Assembly (NCBI GenBank): GCA_963748815.1
Contig: CAVVKJ010000014.1
Location: forward strand, 1-64,000
Source: an uncultured Gemmatimonadales bacterium
Lineage (GTDB): Bacteria; Gemmatimonadota; Gemmatimonadetes; Gemmatimonadales; GWC2-71-9
Direction: 5' to 3'
Length of the DNA: 64,000 bases
A program made the position numbers and the translations under genes. Numbering within the stretch: the stretch's first letter is position 1; each line of letters opens with the position of its first letter. Shown one piece after another: positions 2,590 to 40,008 of this stretch. Below the pieces are notes generated by a model. That model ran no database searches and was not told the DNA's origin. It saw only the letters and a list, made by a program, of their open reading frames with translations.

Positions 2590-4473
2590 GTGAAACCCGT
2601 CGACATCCTTCGCACCCTTCGCTGGCACCTGCGCCGGCTCGCCGCGCAGGCGCGCCGCACGACGTACGGGCCGGTCAACGCCGCGCAGGGCGTCTGGGAC
2701 GACGTGGTGGACTGGTTCAACGGCCTCGGGTTGAGCGAGAACACCATTCTCCTCGGCTTCGCCGTCGTGATCGGCCTCGCCGCGGCCCTCGGCGTCATCG
2801 GGTTCTACAAGTTGATCGACCTCGCGCACCTGGTCTTCTTCAGCTGGCCCGAGTCGTACCTCCCGGAGCTCGGGCAGCTGGCGTACCGTCCGATCCTGAC
2901 CGGTGTCGGCGCGGTCGCCGCCTGGTGGACGATGCGGCGCTTTGCGCCGGGGCAGAAGGGGCTGACCATCCCCGACGTCCAGCTCGCGGTGGTGCGGCGG
3001 CAGGGGGTCATCCCCAGCCGCGCGGTGATGGTGCGGACGGCGGCGAGCGCCATCACGATCGGGAGCGGCGGCTCGGCGGGGGCGGAGGGCCCGATCGCCG
3101 TCTTCGGCGCCGCCGTCGGCTCCCGGCTGGGGCGCTCGTTCCGCTTCTCCGGCAACCGGACCATCATCCTGGTCGGCGCCGGGGCCGCGGCCGGCATTTC
3201 CGCGGCGTTCAACGCGCCACTGGCCGGCGCCTTCTTCGCGCTCGAGGAAATCCTCGGGTCGTTCAGCATCGCCGCCTTTGCGCCGGTCGTCGTCAGCAGC
3301 GTCGTGGCCGCCGTCGTCTCCCGCTCCGTGTTCGGCAACCATCCCGTCTTTCCGGTGCCCTTCGAGCAGGGCTACGGCCTGACCCGCGAGGTCGTCCTCT
3401 TCTACCCGTTGCTGGGGCTCGTCGCGGGCCTCGCCTCCGTGGCCTTCGTCCGCTTCTACTTCGGCGTCGACACCTGGGCGGAACGATTCCGGCGGCGGAT
3501 GCCGGTCCTGCTGGCCCTCGCGGGCGGGGCCGCCGTCGGCGGACTGGCGTTCTTCTCCAGCGGACTGCTCGTCGGCTTCGGGCACCTGGCCATTCCGCTC
3601 GACCGCTTCGACGACCTGGCCTGGTATCTCCTCGTCGCGCTGGCCGGGATGAAGATCCTCGCCACCTCCATCACCCTCAATACCGGCGGGTCGGGCGGGC
3701 TGTTCACCCCCTCGCTCTACGTCGGCGCCACCGCCGGCGCGGCGTTCGGCGCCGTGCTGATCGTCCTCTTTCCCGGGCTCAACCTGACGGTCGAACCCTA
3801 CGCGCTGGTGGGGATGGGCGCGGTGGTGGCGGCGGCGCTCGACGCGCCGATGACCGGCATCCTGATGGTCTGGGAGATGACCGACAACTCCGCCATCATG
3901 CTGCCGCTGATGCTGGCGGTGGTGGTGAGCCACTTCGTGGCCCGGCGGCTGGAGCGCGACTCGCTCTACAGCGGATGGCTGCGCCGCCAGGGTGAACACA
4001 TCGTGCACGGGACCGACCGCGACGTGCTCGCGAGCCTGCGCGTGGCGGAGGCGTACCACCGGAAGCCGATCGTCATCGAGGAACGCACGCTCGCGACGCA
4101 GTTCCTGAGTCACCTCGGCGCCGGGACCCAGGACGTCTTTCCGGTGGTGACCGAGTACGGTGAACTGAGCGGTGTGCTGACGATCGCCGACCTGGCCCGC
4201 ATCGCGAACGAGCCGCGGGAACTCCACCAGATCCTGGTCGCCGCGGAGGCGGCGCAGCCGACGGAGTCCGTGGCGCCGGAGGACTCCCTGCTGGAAGCGA
4301 CGCGCCGGATGGGGGCGCGCGGCGCCGCCGCGCTGCCGGTCGTGGACCCGGAGTCGGGGCGCTTCGTCGGTCTGCTGCGGCGCAGCGATGTGCTGAGCCT
4401 CTATGGGAGAATCCTGGCGGGAGCACCGGAGGCAGGCGGGGCGGCGGGGGCCGCGGGGCAGGGGGGCGAGTAG
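2590..4473 (+). CDS. ClC-family chloride channel/antiporter with CBS pair
   Basis: GAEGP, FNAPLAG..FALEE and GGLFTP motifs, multiple TM helices, C-terminal CBS-like repeats (LPVVD...VGLL). Confidence 0.9.
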   Translation: MKPVDILRTLRWHLRRLAAQARRTTYGPVNAAQGVWDDVVDWFNGLGLSENTILLGFAVVIGLAAALGVIGFYKLIDLAHLVFFSWPESYLPELGQLAYRPILTGVGAVAAWWTMRRFAPGQKGLTIPDVQLAVVRRQGVIPSRAVMVRTAASAITIGSGGSAGAEGPIAVFGAAVGSRLGRSFRFSGNRTIILVGAGAAAGISAAFNAPLAGAFFALEEILGSFSIAAFAPVVVSSVVAAVVSRSVFGNHPVFPVPFEQGYGLTREVVLFYPLLGLVAGLASVAFVRFYFGVDTWAERFRRRMPVLLALAGGAAVGGLAFFSSGLLVGFGHLAIPLDRFDDLAWYLLVALAGMKILATSITLNTGGSGGLFTPSLYVGATAGAAFGAVLIVLFPGLNLTVEPYALVGMGAVVAAALDAPMTGILMVWEMTDNSAIMLPLMLAVVVSHFVARRLERDSLYSGWLRRQGEHIVHGTDRDVLASLRVAEAYHRKPIVIEERTLATQFLSHLGAGTQDVFPVVTEYGELSGVLTIADLARIANEPRELHQILVAAEAAQPTESVAPEDSLLEATRRMGARGAAALPVVDPESGRFVGLLRRSDVLSLYGRILAGAPEAGGAAGAAGQGGE

Positions 4474-4477
4474 GTTC

Positions 4478-4504
4478 GTCATTCCCGCGAAAGCGGGAAT
4501 CCAG
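4478..4504 (+). repeat. REP-like hairpin, family A (GTCATTCCCGCGAAAGCGGGAATCCAG)
   Basis: 8-bp stem with GAAA loop, GTCA head and TCCAG tail; related copies at 4909, 6977, 31588, 31625 and 49033. Confidence 0.9.
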
Positions 4505-4809
4505 TTAGCAGATCGTTGCGGATAGAGATCCCGCCACTCCGGGTTGTTCTTCTCGACGAGTTCCAGCTTCCACCGCCGGTTCCACTTCTTGATCGCCTTT
4601 TCTCGGCTGATGGCAGAGGCCATTGACGGGTGGGGCTCATAGCCAGACCAGGTGCGACACGAAATGCCGGCTGACGTGAAACCTGGAGTCGGTGGTAGTT
4701 AGTTCCCAAATTCGTCTGACGAGGTTGGATGTGACGCCGACGCTACAACGTGCCGGTTGCGTTGGCTTGCGAGGATGTAAACGCAGGGTTGTGATTCAGC
4801 GAGCGCCAC
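4505..4809 (-). pseudogene. GIY-YIG nuclease (small stand-alone type), several frameshifts
   Basis: Joining frames by hand gives QPCVYILASQRNGTLYVGVTSNLVRRIWE...PGFT...LVWYEPHPSMASAISREKAIKKWNRRWKLELVEKNNPEWRDLY; may be a true pseudogene or a poorly polished consensus. Confidence 0.85.
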
Positions 4810-4908
4810 CGGGATCAGAGGGCCTCGCCACTTGCCTGGGCTGAGCTGATCGGACACAACAATCTCGGTGGCAGGACATGGTCAAGCGGATCACCGAATT
4901 CACGCAGG

Positions 4909-4935
4909 CTGGACCCCGGCTTTCGCCGGGGTGAC
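4909..4935 (-). repeat. REP-like hairpin, family A (GTCACCCCGGCGAAAGCCGGGGTCCAG on minus)
   Basis: Same head, tail and loop as 4478..4504 with compensatory stem changes; inverted orientation. Confidence 0.9.
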
Positions 4936-4951
4936 AGCCAACGATATTCGG

Positions 4952-5058
4952 CCCCGCTTCCCCGCTTCCCCGCTTCCCCGCTTCCCCGCTTCCCCGCTTC
5001 CCCGCTTCCCCGCTTCCCCGCTGCTCCGCTGCCCCGTTTCCCGCTTCCCCGCTTCCCC
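4952..5058. repeat. Tandem octamer (CCCCGCTT)x8 plus about 5 degenerate units
   Basis: Read directly; the G-rich strand begins right after the stop codon of the antiporter gene. Confidence 0.95.
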
Positions 5059-6342
5059 CTACGTCTGATCCGTCGCGCTGGGTGGGGCCGATTCGGGCGC
5101 CGACGCGGGGGGCGGGGCCATCTCGGTGAGTGCCGCCGTCGCGCCGCCCCGCCATTCCGGTCCCGACGCGCCGAAGCCGCTGTCCGGCGGCGGCGCGATC
5201 GGATCGAGGTGCAGGGTGGAGTAGTCGATGGCCGGCACCCGCAGGATCAGCCCCGGCAGGAGGGTGATGAGGGTCGTATAGAGGACGAGGGCGCCGAGCA
5301 GGGTCGGCGTCACCCCAGGGCGGCCGCGCAGGATATCCACGATGACCAGCGTGAAGACGAGGGTGGGAAGCAGCGCCACGCCGATGCGGAGGCTCGTCTT
5401 CGGCCGTTCGCGCAGCGCCACCCAGCGGTGCAGCATGACCTCGCCGAGCCGGAGCGAGGCGAAGATGACCAGGAGCGCCACCCCGATGCCCAGCACGACC
5501 CAGTTCAGGTCGTTGGCGCTGATGTACCCGCCGGCATGGAAGAAATAGAAGGGGACGAAGAACGACGCGAACGCCTCGACCGCGCCGAGCATCCGCTCCG
5601 ACGACATGGCGGGGAGGCGGGCGCGAAACTGCCGGGCGGACAGCCCGACGACGAAGGCGCCCACCAGGTAGTACACGCCGAGCCGGCGGGTGGCGGAGGC
5701 GGCGACCACCGCCACCATCAGGAGGAAGGCGAACTCGGAGCGCGGGGCGAACGGCGCGATCCGGCCGGCAAACCACCGGAAGACCGGCGGCAGCATCACG
5801 ATCAGGGCCAGCATGGCGAGCACGCTGAGCCCGAGTTGTTCCGGCGAGGTGGACTGGAGCGCCAGGAACATCACGCTCAGGGCCAGCAGCTCGGAGGCGA
5901 TGGCTTTCGACTTGGTCCAGCGTTTCTCGCTGTCGGAGAGCCCGAAGAGGTCGAGCGAGTCGAGGATGAAGCCGGTGGAGGGGGTGATGAGCGCCAGGGC
6001 CACGAGCGACGCCTCGCGGGTGGCCAGCGAAAAGATCCACGAGGCCGCGGTGGTGAGCAGCGCGAGCGTGGCGGCCCAGATGGCAAGGTGCTGGCCCAGG
6101 ACGCGGGCGTCCGGCTTCAGCGCCTCGAGGTCGACGTCGAGCCCGGCGAAGAGGAAGAGCGCCACGATGCCGAAGGTGGACATCAGGGCGATCGTCTCGT
6201 CGTGCTGAAAGAGGCCGAGGGCCGTGGCGGCGACGCCGAGGGCCAGTGCCGTCACCGCCCCCGGCAGCCGGTAGCGCTGGAGGAACCGCGGGACGACGAA
6301 CAGGACGAACAGCAGCAGGACGTACGAAAGATCTTGCGGCAC
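5059..6342 (-). CDS. Cation:proton antiporter (CPA2/Kef-like membrane domain)
   Basis: About 12 hydrophobic segments; LFLFAGLDVD and VGAFVVG...FFVPFYFFHAG motifs. Confidence 0.8.
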   Translation of the reverse strand: MPQDLSYVLLLFVLFVVPRFLQRYRLPGAVTALALGVAATALGLFQHDETIALMSTFGIVALFLFAGLDVDLEALKPDARVLGQHLAIWAATLALLTTAASWIFSLATREASLVALALITPSTGFILDSLDLFGLSDSEKRWTKSKAIASELLALSVMFLALQSTSPEQLGLSVLAMLALIVMLPPVFRWFAGRIAPFAPRSEFAFLLMVAVVAASATRRLGVYYLVGAFVVGLSARQFRARLPAMSSERMLGAVEAFASFFVPFYFFHAGGYISANDLNWVVLGIGVALLVIFASLRLGEVMLHRWVALRERPKTSLRIGVALLPTLVFTLVIVDILRGRPGVTPTLLGALVLYTTLITLLPGLILRVPAIDYSTLHLDPIAPPPDSGFGASGPEWRGGATAALTEMAPPPASAPESAPPSATDQT

Positions 6343-6348
6343 GGCGGC

Positions 6349-6941
6349 TCAGGGCACGCGGGGCAGGGACTTCATCACCTCGGCGACGACCGAGTTGATC
6401 CGCGCCTGGTCCGGCGCCGTGCTCTTCGGTTGGCGCTCCAGCGTGCCGCGCCAGGCCGTCCGCCCCGCCTTCTCATCCACCAGCGACGCTTCAAACGTCA
6501 CGTTCTGGACCTGATCCGGCGGCGGAAGCGACGACAGCTGGGTGTCCTGCGTCCTGCCGTACCCGTTGCCGATGCCCTGGATCGGCGGTCCGCTGACTCC
6601 GCCCCCGGTGGGGGCGTACTGGGCCGTGGTCTGCACCCCGAGGAAGAAGCGCGCCACGAACATCGCCGGCTGGCCGCTGTCGACGACGGTGTACCCCTTC
6701 GCCCTGAACTGGGCCGTGAGCGCCCGCGCGATCATGTGACGGATGCTGTCGTTCGACACGTTGGGGTACACGTCCGGCCCGGCCCGCGAGCCTGCTATGG
6801 GGAGGGTCACGGTGGCGCCGCCGGGGATGGGGACCGCGTCGTTGCGCTCCGAGGTGGTGCTGGCGCTGCACGCGGTCATGCCCAGGAGGGCGACGAGAGT
6901 CGCCGCCGGTCGGGTTCGATTCGTGGGGCGAGTCTGGACAT
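6349..6941 (-). CDS. DUF4136-like lipoprotein (probable frameshift within the signal peptide)
   Basis: Lipobox-like LLGMTAC; C-terminal LVDEKAGRTAWRG; paralog of 7043..7666; RBS+ATG at 6941 is out of frame with the ORF starting at 6879. Confidence 0.65.
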
Positions 6942-6976: not shown

Positions 6977-7003
6977 CTGGACCCCGGCGTTCGCCGGGGT
7001 GAC
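6977..7003 (-). repeat. REP-like hairpin, family A
   Basis: GTCACCCCGGCGAACGCCGGGGTCCAG on minus; followed by octamer tract 7017..7042. Confidence 0.9.
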
Positions 7004-7042
7004 GAATTTCGATTGGCTTCCCCGCTTCCCCGCTGCCCCGCC

Positions 7043-7794: not shown

Positions 7795-7937
7795 TGTGCC
7801 CGCAGCGCACGGCAGGTCCCCCCCCGCTGGTTCGCATGCCCGAGTCCCCCTGACTCTGTGTTCCAACCCTTTCGACCCCGCGCCCGTGGCGGGGGCTGTG
7901 GCATTGCCACGCACCACCCATTGACACCGGAGTGCAC

Positions 7938-9135
7938 GTGAAGCTGACCCACCGCTCGACCTCGCCGGCGCGCGCCCTGCGCTCGCTCGTTCTCCTCGGC
8001 CTGCTGGCCGGCACCGTCGCCGCCTGCAGCGACGACACCACCGACCCGACGCCGATCCCGGGCGCGACCCTGACCATCGTGCCGAACCTCCGCGCCGAGG
8101 ACATCAGCGCCGACGGCAGCACGGTCCTCCTCAGCGACTTCGCCTCCCCCACCGCCGATTTCTACTTCTACGACGTCGCCGCGGGCACCACGACCCTGAA
8201 GGGGTCGGCCGGCGACGGGTTGTGGGACTTCACCACCGGCATCTCCAACGGGCTGCGCGTCAGCGCCATCCACGGCAAGCCGGAGAATGCCGGCCTCTGG
8301 CAGGAAGGCGCCGGCTGGCAGGACCTGGGCAGCATCCACATGGACGGCTGCGAGTTCGATTCGGAAACCGGTGCCCAGGACCTGAGCAGCGGCTGGGACA
8401 TCGACTCCGCCGGCCACACCACGGTTGGGCTGGTCTGGAACCTCTGCAACGCGGAAGCGTTCCTGTGGACCGACGCGTCTGGCGCCGGCAACTTCGTCGC
8501 GCTGGACCTGATCGGCGACGCCGACACGTTGCAGCGGCAATCCGGCCGAGCAACCGCGCCACCGTCATCTCCGATGACGGCACGATGGTCGGCGGCTTCG
8601 CCTCGCAGTACGCGAATGTCGGCGGCTACACCTACTGGATCGACCGCCGCCCGGCCATCTGGACCGTCGACCGGCGTCGGCTCGTTCGTCCCCTCGAACG
8701 GCGTCTTCACCGACGACAGCCCGGGCGAAGTGCTCGCCATTTCCGGCAACGGCCTGGTCGTGACCGGCGTCTGGAACCAGATGCCGTTCATCTGGAGCTC
8801 GGCGCTCGGCACCATCAACGTCGCCTCGGGCACCTACGAGGGGTACTTCGGGTACGGCCAGGCGACGGCCCTCAACGGCCAGGTCGTCTACGGCACCATG
8901 ACCGAGGGCTTCTTCGGCACGCCGTTCCCCTTCTTCTGGACCCAGGCGGGCGGCGTGAAGTCGATCCTCGACATCGCCACCGAGAACGGCATCACGCTGC
9001 CGGAGAACTACTGGTGGCAGTCGGTCGTGGCCGCCTCGGCGGACGGCACCATCATCGTCGGCACGGCGTACGACGAGACCTTCAACTACAACACGCTACG
9101 TGCTGAAGGTCCCGGCCTCGATCTACGGCCTCTAG
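7938..9135 (+). CDS. Secreted lipoprotein with HAF-like/beta-propeller repeats (about 3 frameshifts)
   Basis: Lipobox VAAC; repeats ISADGS, ISDDGT, ISGNG, ASADGT; frames switch near 8530, 8670 and 9095; ends YVLKVPASIYGL-TAG. Confidence 0.65.
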
Positions 9136-9161
9136 CACCGACCGGCAGCCCCTGGCTGCAG

Positions 9162-9200
9162 CGGCCGTCGGTGCGCGGAACTCTCGCGCACCGACGGCCG
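9162..9200. terminator. 16-bp perfect stem-loop after the lipoprotein gene
   Basis: CGGCCGTCGGTGCGCG-N7-CGCGCACCGACGGCCG; weak U-tract. Confidence 0.55.
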
Positions 9201-9328
9201 TGTCGCATCCATGCTGTTCCTGAACGCATCACTGACACCGCGAGGAGATTGACTACGTACAGAAGGAGTTCCCGCAGCCCGGCCCTGCTGCCCCGCTGCC
9301 CCGCTGCCCCCCCTAGCTTTCGGATCCC

Positions 9329-11114
9329 ATGCGTCGCCTCCTGACTCTTCTCGCCGCCGCGGCCCTGCCCTCCGTCGCCCCGGCCCAGCAGTCCGCTCCC
9401 GTCACCGACATCCGCTACGACCTGACCTTCACCAGCGCCACCGCGCAGGCCCAGAGTCTCTCCGTCACGACGCGGTTCCAGGTGGCCTGGGACCGACCCG
9501 GTGCTCCTGTCGCTGCCCAGCTGGACGCCCGGCGCCTACGAGGTCTCCAACTTTGCCCGGCGGGTCTCGAGCTTCTCAGTTACACAGGGCGGCGTCCCGA
9601 TCACTTGGGACAAGGCCGATCCCGACACCTGGCGCATCCGCCCGACCGCCAAGGGCGAGGTGACCATCACCTTCGACTTCCGGGCCGACCAGCTCGACAA
9701 CGCCATGGCCTGGAGCCGGCCGGACTTCCTGATGGTGAACGGCACGAACGTCTTCCTCTATCCGGAAGGCCGGAGTCTCGACTTCGCCGCGAAGGTCACC
9801 GTCACCACGGAGCCGGCCTGGCGGGTCGCGACCGGCATGACCCCCGACGGCACCCCGCGCGCCTTCCGGGCCGGTAACTACCACGACCTGGTGGACATGC
9901 CGTTCTTTGTCGGCAAATTCGACCTCGACAGCACCCAGGTGGAAGGGAAGTGGATCCGCCTGGCGAGCTACCCCACCGGCACCCTGGCCGGTGCGCAGCG
10001 CGCGACGTTCTGGAGCGAGCTGAAGCGGTACCTGCCGGTCGAGATTGCGGTCTTCGGCGTGGCGCCCTACGAGAGCTACACCAACCTCCTCATTTTCGAC
10101 GAGGAGTACGGCGGCGGGAGCGCGCTCGAGCACCAGAACTCCCACGTGGGCATCTACACGCCGCTGCTCATCGGCAACCCCGTCCTCCCGTCCATCACCG
10201 CGCACGAAATCTTCCACCTCTGGAACGTCAAGCGTCTCCGGCCGGCGGACATGGTGCCGTACGCCTACGACCGCTGGATGCCGACGCCGTGGCTCTGGGT
10301 GAGCGAGGGGATCACCGACTACTACGCCGACGTGGCGCTGGTGCGCGCCGGCGTCATCGACTCGACCGAGTTCCTGGCGCTGACCGCGGGGAAGATGCAG
10401 GAAGTGGCCGATGTGCCGGTCGTGTCGCTCGAGGACGCCTCGATTTCCGCCTGGATCGGGATGACCGACGGCACCGGCTCGATCTACTATCCGAAGGGCT
10501 CGCTGGCCGGCATGCTGCTCGACATCCGGATCCGCGCCGCCAGCGGCAACCGGAAGTCGCTCGACGACGTGATGCGGTCCCTCTACCAGTCCACCTTCGA
10601 AAAGGGCCGGGGCTTCACGGGCAAGGAGTGGTGGGCCGCCGTGTCCGCGGCCGCCGGCGGCGTGTCGTTCGACGACTTCAACGCCCGCTATATTGACGGA
10701 CGCGAGCCGTTTCCGTACGCCGCTGATTTCGCCCTGGCGGGGCTCTCCGCGGTCCTCGACAGCAACCGCGTCGCCCGGCTCGGGATCCAGAGTTCCAACG
10801 ATTCGACGACCATCGTCCTCGCGGTAGCACCGGGGTCGGCCTTCGCCGAGGCGGGAGGGCTCGCCGGCGACGAACTGGTCCGCGTCGGCACCTTCGACGC
10901 GTCCGACCAGGGGTGGGCCGCCCAATTCCGGGGCCGGTACGGCCGTGAGCCGGAAGGGACCATCATTCCGGTGGTGGTGCGGCGGGACGGGGCAGAGCGC
11001 ACCCTGCAGATGCCGCTCCGCTTCGTCACCCTCGTCAGCTACCGCCTGACGTTCGATCCCAACGCCTCGCCGAGCGCCGTCCGGATTCGGCAGGGAATCA
11101 TGACGGGCAGGTAA
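9329..11114 (+). CDS. M61 glycyl aminopeptidase with PDZ-like domain (frameshift near 9490)
   Basis: LPSWTPGAY, GGSALEH, HEIFHLWNVKRLRP, LWVSEGITDYY; signal peptide lies in ORF 9329. Confidence 0.9.
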
Positions 11115-31587: not shown

Positions 31588-31651
31588 GTGACCCCCGCGA
31601 AAGCGGGGGTCCAGAACCCGACCTCTGGATTCCCGCTTCCGCGGGAATGAC
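31588..31651. repeat. Inverted doublet of family A hairpins (REPIN-like)
   Basis: GTGACCCCCGCGAAAGCGGGGGTCCAG-N10-CTGGATTCCCGCTTCCGCGGGAATGAC; followed by TTTCCCGC octamers to about 31700. Confidence 0.9.
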
Positions 31652-38634: not shown

Positions 38635-40008
38635 ATGGCGAAGATCGACGTGATCATGCCCCAGATGGGTGAGTCCATCGCCGAGGGGACGCTGTCGCGG
38701 TGGATGAAGAAGGTCGGCGACGCGGTCAAGCGCGACGAGCCGATCTTCGAGATCTCCACCGACAAGGTCGACGCGGAAATTCCCGCGCCCCAGGCCGGCG
38801 TCCTGGTCGAGATCCTGGTGCAGGAAGGGGAGACGGTCGCGATCCAGACCGTCGTCGCCCGGCTGGAGACGGACGCCAGCGCGGCGGCGGCAGCTCCAGC
38901 TCCCGCCCCGGCCGCCCCGGCCGCCCCGGCGGCGCCGGCACCAGCCGTCCCCAAGTCAGCCCCCGCGGCTGTTGCTGCACCCGTCCCCGCTTCCCCGCTG
39001 ACGACTTCCCCGCCTCCGGCGAGCACCGGCGCGGAATCGGCGGACGAGCGGTTGCGCCGGAAAAGCACCCCCCTCGTCCGCAAGATGGCCGCCGAGCACA
39101 ACCTCGACATCAGCGCCATCGCGGGGAGCGGACACGCCGGCCGCGTGACCAAGAGTGACGTTCTCTCCTACCTCGAGACTGCCCCCGCCGTCACCCCGGC
39201 GGAAGCCGGGGCCCGCAGCCCCGCGGCCCCGCCGGCGCCCGCCGCGGGCGCTCGCGGTGCGAGCCGCCTCATCGAAGTCCCGTCGCCTGTCGTCGAGCCG
39301 TGGGAAGGGGACCGGGTCGAGCCGTGGAGCAAGATCCGGAAGCTCACCGCCGATCACATGATCATGTCGCGCCGGGTGTCGGCGCACGTGAACAGCCTCT
39401 TCGAGATCGACTTCACCCGGGTCGCGCAGGTGCGCGCCGCCCGCAAGAAGGAATACGCCGAGCGCGGCGTGAACCTGACCTTCCTGGCGTTCATCGTGAA
39501 GGCGGTCGCCGACACCATCCGGAAGCATCCGGGCGTCAACGCCGCCGTCATGGGCGACGCCACCGTCTTCCGCCGCGACATCAACATCGGCATTGCCGTG
39601 GCGCTCGACTGGGGCCTCATCGTCCCCGTCATCAAGCGTGCCGACGAGCTGTCGCTCCTCGGCGTAGCCCGGGCCATCAACGACCTCGGCGAGCGCGCGC
39701 GCAACAAGAAGCTCACCCCGGACGAGGTGCAGCGCGGCACCTTCACCATCACCAATCCGGGCGGCTTCGGCTCCTTTGCCGGCACGCCGATCATCAACCA
39801 GCCGCAGGTGGCCATCCTGGGCATCGGCGCCATCGAGAAGCGGCCGCACGTGGTCACGGCGCCCGATGGGACCGACGCCCTCGCCATCCGGACCAAGGGA
39901 ATGTTCACCATGGCCTACGACCATCGCATTGTCGATGGCGCCGACGCCGACCGCTTCCTGGCCGACCTGAAGACCGCCCTGCAGACCTTCCCCGACACCG
40001 GCGCCTGA
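38635..40008 (+). CDS. Dihydrolipoamide acyltransferase E2
   Basis: Lipoyl STDKV, subunit-binding GSGHAGRVTKSD, catalytic DHRIVDG. Confidence 0.92.
   Translation: MAKIDVIMPQMGESIAEGTLSRWMKKVGDAVKRDEPIFEISTDKVDAEIPAPQAGVLVEILVQEGETVAIQTVVARLETDASAAAAAPAPAPAAPAAPAAPAPAVPKSAPAAVAAPVPASPLTTSPPPASTGAESADERLRRKSTPLVRKMAAEHNLDISAIAGSGHAGRVTKSDVLSYLETAPAVTPAEAGARSPAAPPAPAAGARGASRLIEVPSPVVEPWEGDRVEPWSKIRKLTADHMIMSRRVSAHVNSLFEIDFTRVAQVRAARKKEYAERGVNLTFLAFIVKAVADTIRKHPGVNAAVMGDATVFRRDINIGIAVALDWGLIVPVIKRADELSLLGVARAINDLGERARNKKLTPDEVQRGTFTITNPGGFGSFAGTPIINQPQVAILGIGAIEKRPHVVTAPDGTDALAIRTKGMFTMAYDHRIVDGADADRFLADLKTALQTFPDTGA

Follow-up and report, generated by a model that had tools for sequence, protein, structure and literature searches.

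In the window (the whole 64,000-nt stretch of DNA analysed here, from the genome of an uncultured Gemmatimonadales bacterium that we call G000), a small GIY-YIG nuclease gene lies between two inverted hairpins, in the space separating convergent genes for a ClC channel or transporter and a Na+/H+ exchanger family protein (Table 1). From its sequence, we assign the gene to the Ssn family of GIY-YIG nucleases that act on single strands, a placement made by its homologs and by the SRM hairpins around it rather than by the cd10448 profile; the system is already published, and the locus is a genuine member of it whose gene is broken.

Table 1. Features at and around the hairpin-bounded nuclease gene, with positions in the window
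Feature	Position	Strand	Basis and remarks
ClC channel/transporter with CBS domains, left neighbour	2590..4473	+	ORF; PF00654 and CBS
Left hairpin (SRM/NTS, CGTC-type REP)	4477..4504	+	SRM pattern match; head outward, just beyond the 3' end of the nuclease gene
ssn-like GIY-YIG nuclease gene of about 95 codons, frameshifted in the assembly	4505..4797	-	Frameshift-aware alignment to 59 intact homologs
Cassette upstream spacer, single copy	4798..4908	-	No further complete copy in G000 or among the fetched loci
Right hairpin (SRM)	4909..4936	-	SRM pattern match; head outward, upstream of the nuclease gene
(CCCCGCTT)n octamer tract, a separate genome-wide intergenic repeat	~4952..5057	+	142 tracts in G000
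Na+/H+ exchanger family gene, right neighbour, convergent with ClC	5059..6342	-	PF00999
Lone SRM hairpin	6977..7004	-	SRM pattern match; also at the syntenic site in G001
Nuclease-free hairpin doublet, heads outward	31588..31651	.	Pattern match

A nuclease gene between two hairpins

Both hairpins had been noted in the initial annotation, and their description as inverted 27-nt units around the gene (4478-4504, plus strand, and 4909-4935, minus strand) stands: they are 78% complementary, leave 404 nt between them, and fold with z scores against shuffled sequences of -4.07 (left) and -4.92 (right). The left one forms an 8-bp stem with a 4-nt loop and, read directly against the published NTS consensus, fits it with zero mismatches. 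The nuclease-free doublet, correctly said to have the same relative orientation as the cassette pair, has a right copy that also fits this consensus and a left copy that starts with GTGA. When up to two mismatches were allowed, the hairpin pattern matched the window six times and 100 shuffles not once. The matches include the doublet and the lone copy at 6977-7003; this copy and a weak one at 39190-39215 had escaped the initial annotation.

Across the source genome there are 124 exact hairpin matches (none for the reversed control) that fall in 87 loci, with 34 of the 44 adjacent pairs inverted and heads outward; these counts are slightly inflated because near-duplicate contigs overlap. The published SRM pattern is loose: taken alone, it occurs genome-wide at 49 per Mb, only about threefold the 12–19 per Mb of a Markov control. 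The near-duplicate contigs, 95–99% identical, are C15, C16 and C5 (166–185 kb), C12 and C18, and C1 and C9, and the assembly contains strain variants and unpolished stretches. At positions 6933 and 6949 of the window, near the lone hairpin, contigs of three sequencing runs carry one base more and those of two runs one base fewer, which reflects either a strain difference or an assembly error. The ORF at 7932-9344 seems to leave and re-enter its frame mid-way, with an overlapping frame that is more protein-like, and possibly contains another pair of indels.

The initial annotation also noted a tract on each side beyond the hairpins. The degenerate G-rich tract at 4435-4470, on the left, turned out to be the coding end of the ClC gene (the last codons of ORF 2590-4473), and similar G-rich ClC ends occur in the nuclease-free junctions of three relatives (G001, G002 and G008). 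On the right, the octamer tract is indeed present but belongs to a repeat family scattered across G000; 34 of its 142 tracts lie within 100 bp of a hairpin locus, a raw count uncorrected for intergenic position, and the nuclease-free junction of G008 carries a related tract. We thus rejected both tracts as cassette ends.

The presence of a small frameshifted GIY-YIG gene between the hairpins, on the minus strand, was upheld, but the gene contains at least five frameshifts rather than one, near 4758, 4745, 4690, 4674 and 4642, as located by frameshift-aware alignment to 59 intact rows with identical results at three penalties. With about 95 codons, well below the 150 residues taken as the limit for a small single-domain protein, the gene can be aligned over its full length with these homologs, which are of like size. 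It keeps 33 of the 36 columns on which 90% or more of them agree, columns at breaks being scored after discounting the extra base; of the three that changed, two are located among the breaks. ATG is absent at the expected start, and a TAA at 4507-4505, next to the left hairpin, lies in another frame than the gene. The catalytic residues of SsnA are Y6, Y17 and E64 (PMC11893778); matched by motif position, the first Tyr and the Glu of a REK motif appear to be kept in the window gene, and the codon of the second Tyr sits on a frameshift. Database profiles place the protein only loosely, with a weak Pfam match to PF01541 (E 0.07, below the cut-off) and no NCBIfam family above cut-off, and a search of solved structures with the intact protein of a relative (G006) returned a UPF0213 protein (E 6e-4) and UvrC (E 0.58), with no Ssn structure among the matches. 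The gene has a G+C content of 57%, against 68.6% for G000, and is the sole one of the Ssn kind found in this genome, which is 86% complete.

As it reads, the window copy is predicted to make no functional protein. We lean towards assembly error as the source of most frameshifts, considering that the gene has many indels and few damaging substitutions, and that a 499-bp patch elsewhere in the same assembly shows 47 gap openings and 4 mismatches. True decay, to which we give somewhat less than an even chance, is favoured by the intactness of both neighbours and by the finding that, among 95 genes tested (84 kb), no more than 7 are split over several frames. Contigs from four of 24 sequencing runs were compared with the window: in three runs there is no depth over 4541-4854, none of the pieces listed covers the gene, and the joins that span it are short-sided or come from diverged organisms, so that the contigs favour neither error nor decay.

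Ssn homologs and the hairpin repeats

The Ssn family (CDD cd10448) comprises single-strand GIY-YIG nucleases with NTS and SRM hairpins (Chenal et al. 2025, PMC11893778). According to that study, four Ssn homologs bind and cleave their own hairpin as single-stranded DNA, cutting a few bases upstream of it and on the forward strand only, with no cleavage reported for double-stranded DNA or RNA; an SRM is found near 71% of Ssn homologs and on both flanks of 42%; and the NTS-ssnA-NTS arrangement is likened, as a hypothesis in the Discussion, to IS200/IS605 and REP systems (PMC11893778).

A query made from the 3' frame of the G000 gene retrieved 161 relatives from genome_contigs, of which the best 80 were taken on. 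Among the 76 of these 80 loci with enough flanking sequence, kin clusters included, an SRM lies within about 200 bp upstream in 50, downstream in 50, on both sides in 40 and on either side in 60, whereas shuffled controls gave 0.1, 0.2 and 0.0 for upstream, downstream and both. At a distance of 1.0–1.2 kb from the homologs, only 1 of 71 loci and 2 of 72 loci still have one; shuffles and distance bins took the place of a distal control with only three usable loci. The nearest hairpin has its head outward in 36 of 47 cases upstream and 37 of 44 downstream (70 of the 80 loci, some gene ends being approximate), in agreement with the window, and the enrichment extends over many phyla. In Supplementary Data 4 of the Ssn study, the species of three homolog loci (L025, L034 and L043) score YES at the genome level on all four ssnA/cd10448 criteria, and Lysobacter antibioticus, represented there by another strain than that of our homolog locus, on one of the four (PMC11893778).

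The hairpin enrichment within 200 bp of homologs, which the initial annotation proposed as a check, is therefore strong, but the link between a GIY-YIG enzyme and these hairpins, which it offered as new and untested, is neither, having been published with cleavage data (PMC11893778). Since the architecture, the biochemistry and the analogy with RAYT systems are already in print, the locus itself is ordinary. Our literature search, thin on subscription journals and supplements, found no test of Ssn mobility.

Close ssn homologs are present in 3 of 17 genomes of the genus and in 6 of 250 sampled in the family. The three carriers in the genus have 124, 102 and 32 hairpins, counts that come from non-independent kin and from fragmented assemblies, which lose repeats. 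Five further genomes (G002, G008, G012, G013 and G014), 80–98% complete and with no close ssn found, have 122, 65, 44, 43 and 22 hairpins, in no assigned order, and the remaining nine have 0–8. Since no close ssn was found in five hairpin-rich relatives, these counts fall short of showing that the approximately 124 lone hairpins are made by Ssn; loss of ssn after the expansion, or incomplete assembly, could explain these genomes.

These distributions bear on the idea that Ssn has a domesticated host role, as a restriction-like filter on hairpin-bearing single-stranded DNA that enters the cell or replicates, with the hairpins regulating or protecting the gene and relocation left to general recombination and horizontal transfer. 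Hairpin-rich relatives that persist without a close ssn agree with it, as does the sole in vivo function described for the family, a reduced integration of NTS-bearing transforming DNA in Neisseria (PMC11893778). Nevertheless, the patchy presence of ssn is better accommodated by a selfish unit, and we deem a host filter unlikely, the more so in view of the cassette sites described below.

Another possibility is that a RAYT or other HUH transposase spreads the hairpins in trans, with ssn a passenger caught between two of them. Hairpin counts that do not strictly track ssn would fit this, and G000 does contain one Y1 (RAYT-like) transposase gene (L004, G000:C5:409858-410440), its only PF01797 match, on another contig than the window; with the genome 86% complete, a second one could be unassembled. 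The gene between the window repeats is, however, GIY-YIG and not HUH (Y1_Tnp), no hairpin of the window family lies within 5 kb of the Y1 gene, and the latter is bracketed on both sides by a different palindrome, with 74 strand-counted matches (about 37 sites) in G000, which also fills the ClC/antiporter junction of G008. A RAYT elsewhere in the genome flanked by the hairpins of the window, one of the findings that the initial annotation named as refuting its proposal, along with a lack of enrichment or of structure-specific binding or cleavage, was thus not encountered in the assembled part of G000. Considering also that the text of the survey of CGTC repeats reports no transposase gene flanked by them (PMC3733652), and that hairpins are enriched beside ssn homologs in so many phyla, we regard a trans-acting HUH enzyme as quite improbable.

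Cassette sites in related genomes

Fifteen ClC/antiporter junctions were fetched from relatives and ten could be placed, the other five being stretches without ClC. The comparison of this junction, proposed in the initial annotation, was informative: nine of the ten have no ssn and one (G006) holds a divergent copy. The two genes nearly abut, with no SRM, in five junctions; three others (G001, G002 and G014; L115-L117) contain other coding DNA, about 2.5 kb long, which on inspection looks transporter-like; and that of G008 contains other repeats together with SRM-like copies. At the window site we found no direct repeat of 10 nt or more around the cassette, very short duplications being below the reach of the search.

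The ssn gene of G006 is intact, codes for 95 amino acids and has the opposite orientation to the window copy, although its outer hairpins, of two types, match those of G000 side for side. Both cassettes might then descend from one ancestral insertion, inverted between its inverted ends and later diverged or decayed. In a quickly built tree from 96 columns, where 10 of 81 inner branches are starred, the G000 copy stands apart from those of G006 and G001 on unstarred branches only, so that a single origin is not rejected. Against it, the proteins share 25 of 40 residues (62.5%) over the clean half, compared with 91–93% identity for the neighbour genes; the upstream spacers of G000 and G006 differ; and the G006 copy is nearer to the G001 copy, at another site (69%). 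A single insertion also leaves the replacement found in G001 unaccounted for, and we consider it very unlikely, the least probable of the alternatives.

In G001, a 376-bp hairpin-ssn-hairpin unit with 28-nt identical inverted ends (C6, ca. 424200-424560; L131/L187) stands in place of about 408 bp of an integrase gene that in G000 has a PF00589 match (L186, G000:C9:9585-9993). The flanks are 96.5–97.9% identical to G000, and the G001 state is the derived one because coding sequence was lost there. On the right, the hairpin head lies exactly at the junction; the left end contains about 25 unexplained bases, and a search of G000 and the fetched loci did not turn up their source. The unit comes with a deletion, unlike an insertion sequence bracketed by a target-site duplication. 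The replaced segment corresponds to the start of the catalytic domain of a tyrosine integrase, itself part of a small island next to a tRNA gene, and the G000 integrase shifts frame near its 3' end. With regard to the host-filter reading outlined above, the fact that three carriers have the cassette at two sites, and that a hairpin head marks the exact junction inside an integrase gene, suit a selfish unit better than a retained host gene.

Sites of hairpins without ssn are also variable. From the first 30 of the 102 hairpin matches of G001, 27 lie at 20 syntenic sites. G000 has a hairpin at 12 of these sites and none at the other 8; other repeat families occupy several of the eight, and none is a clean empty site with a duplication. 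The site of the 31588 doublet has hairpins with other spacers in G002 and G014, two hairpins in G001 and none in G008, and is masked in G006. Given that intergenic sites in the genus also exchange other repeat families, cassette sites may be general hot spots.

Besides ssn, we observed a second and more distant clade of small GIY-YIG proteins, 45–54% identical to the G006 protein and flanked by a hairpin that the SRM pattern misses (L140 in G001:C3, L133 in G016, L135 in G014, L136 in G012, and L134 and L142 in G023). Within the genus, it occupies three different sites, and the gene is absent from each of them in G000; one of these loci is a 523-bp block between convergent genes, where G000 has almost nothing. 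G000 contains nine matches to the hairpin of this clade and no gene of it.

A proposed route of movement and comparison with known systems

We think it likely that the window contains a hairpin-ssn-hairpin cassette of the Ssn kind with a frameshifted gene, of which an intact copy would nick hairpin-bearing single-stranded DNA, and that such cassettes spread as selfish units by way of host repair. Our basis for this consists of anatomy, homology, canonical orientation, and presence or absence among relatives, whereas hairpin-specific binding and cleavage are taken from the four published homologs. Since the presence of such cassettes varies among relatives, both at the window site and at a second one, a selfish mode of spread is the likely one. 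As far as genome comparisons reach, they support cassette mobility, with the integrase replacement counting as one event.

If intact, the enzyme would recognise its cognate hairpin in single-stranded DNA and cut a few bases before the head, on its 5' side; with both heads outward, each strand would be cuttable just beyond one end of the unit once the DNA is unwound. GIY-YIG nucleases hydrolyse DNA, with no covalent intermediate and no strand transfer, and therefore the joining would have to come from host recombination or end-joining, which would finish the move, with standing hairpins serving as homology where present. Joining by host repair predicts replacements, deletions and swapped interiors rather than clean insertions, which fits the G001 replacement, the G006 cassette and the spacers at the 31588 site. 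Lone and doublet hairpins may have arisen by the same nick-and-repair route, a weaker part of the proposal.

More tentatively, and with rather less than even confidence, Ssn cassettes could be an autonomous class of mobile elements without a transposase, consisting of a 95-residue nickase aided by host repair, whose action in trans builds or reworks doublets of CGTC REPs. If so, the CGTC REP superfamily would gain its missing mobiliser, which would have left direct traces in the G001 replacement and in the G000/G006 pair. These putative traces of mobility are the only addition made by this locus, and they render the published hypothesis of mobility somewhat more likely. The question at stake is whether Ssn moves its cassette and multiplies the CGTC repeats, a group for which the survey of 2013 named no mobiliser. 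For this purpose, the genus offers two intact alleles (G006 and G001), a recent integrase replacement with 97%-identical flanks, and variable sites in close relatives.

REPtrons, or RAYT-REPIN systems, consist of HUH Y1 transposases with GTAG REPs. The cassette resembles them in having the enzyme gene inside outward-headed hairpins, in the existence of enzyme-free inverted doublets and in the cutting of single-stranded DNA 5' of the hairpin; unlike the HUH enzyme, Ssn is a GIY-YIG nuclease without a covalent tyrosine intermediate or strand transfer of its own.

The repeats themselves resemble the CGTC-tagged REPs (CGTC-1, including the dRS3 of Neisseria), described as having a CGTC or TGTC head, an 8-bp stem, a 4-nt loop and a CCA tail, and as multicopy repeats that often form inverted dimers (Di Nocera et al. 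2013, PMC3733652). The window hairpins agree in head, stem, loop and tail, and those of G000 as a whole are likewise multicopy, dispersed and arranged in inverted dimers, with no flanking transposase; they differ in that the window repeats flank a GIY-YIG gene, whereas the survey, in its text, linked no enzyme to the repeats (PMC3733652).

The closest likeness in both enzyme and repeat is with the Ssn/NTS-SRM systems, which share a single-domain GIY-YIG gene of about 95 codons with an SRM hairpin on each side, and numerous lone and paired hairpins across the genome (PMC11893778). Unlike the Ssn genes described there, the window gene is frameshifted and its host is an uncultured organism of high G+C content. 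The main text of that study presents no empty-site or insertion comparisons, whereas the genus analysed here provides the replacement of an integrase segment in G001 and a cassette in the opposite orientation in G006.
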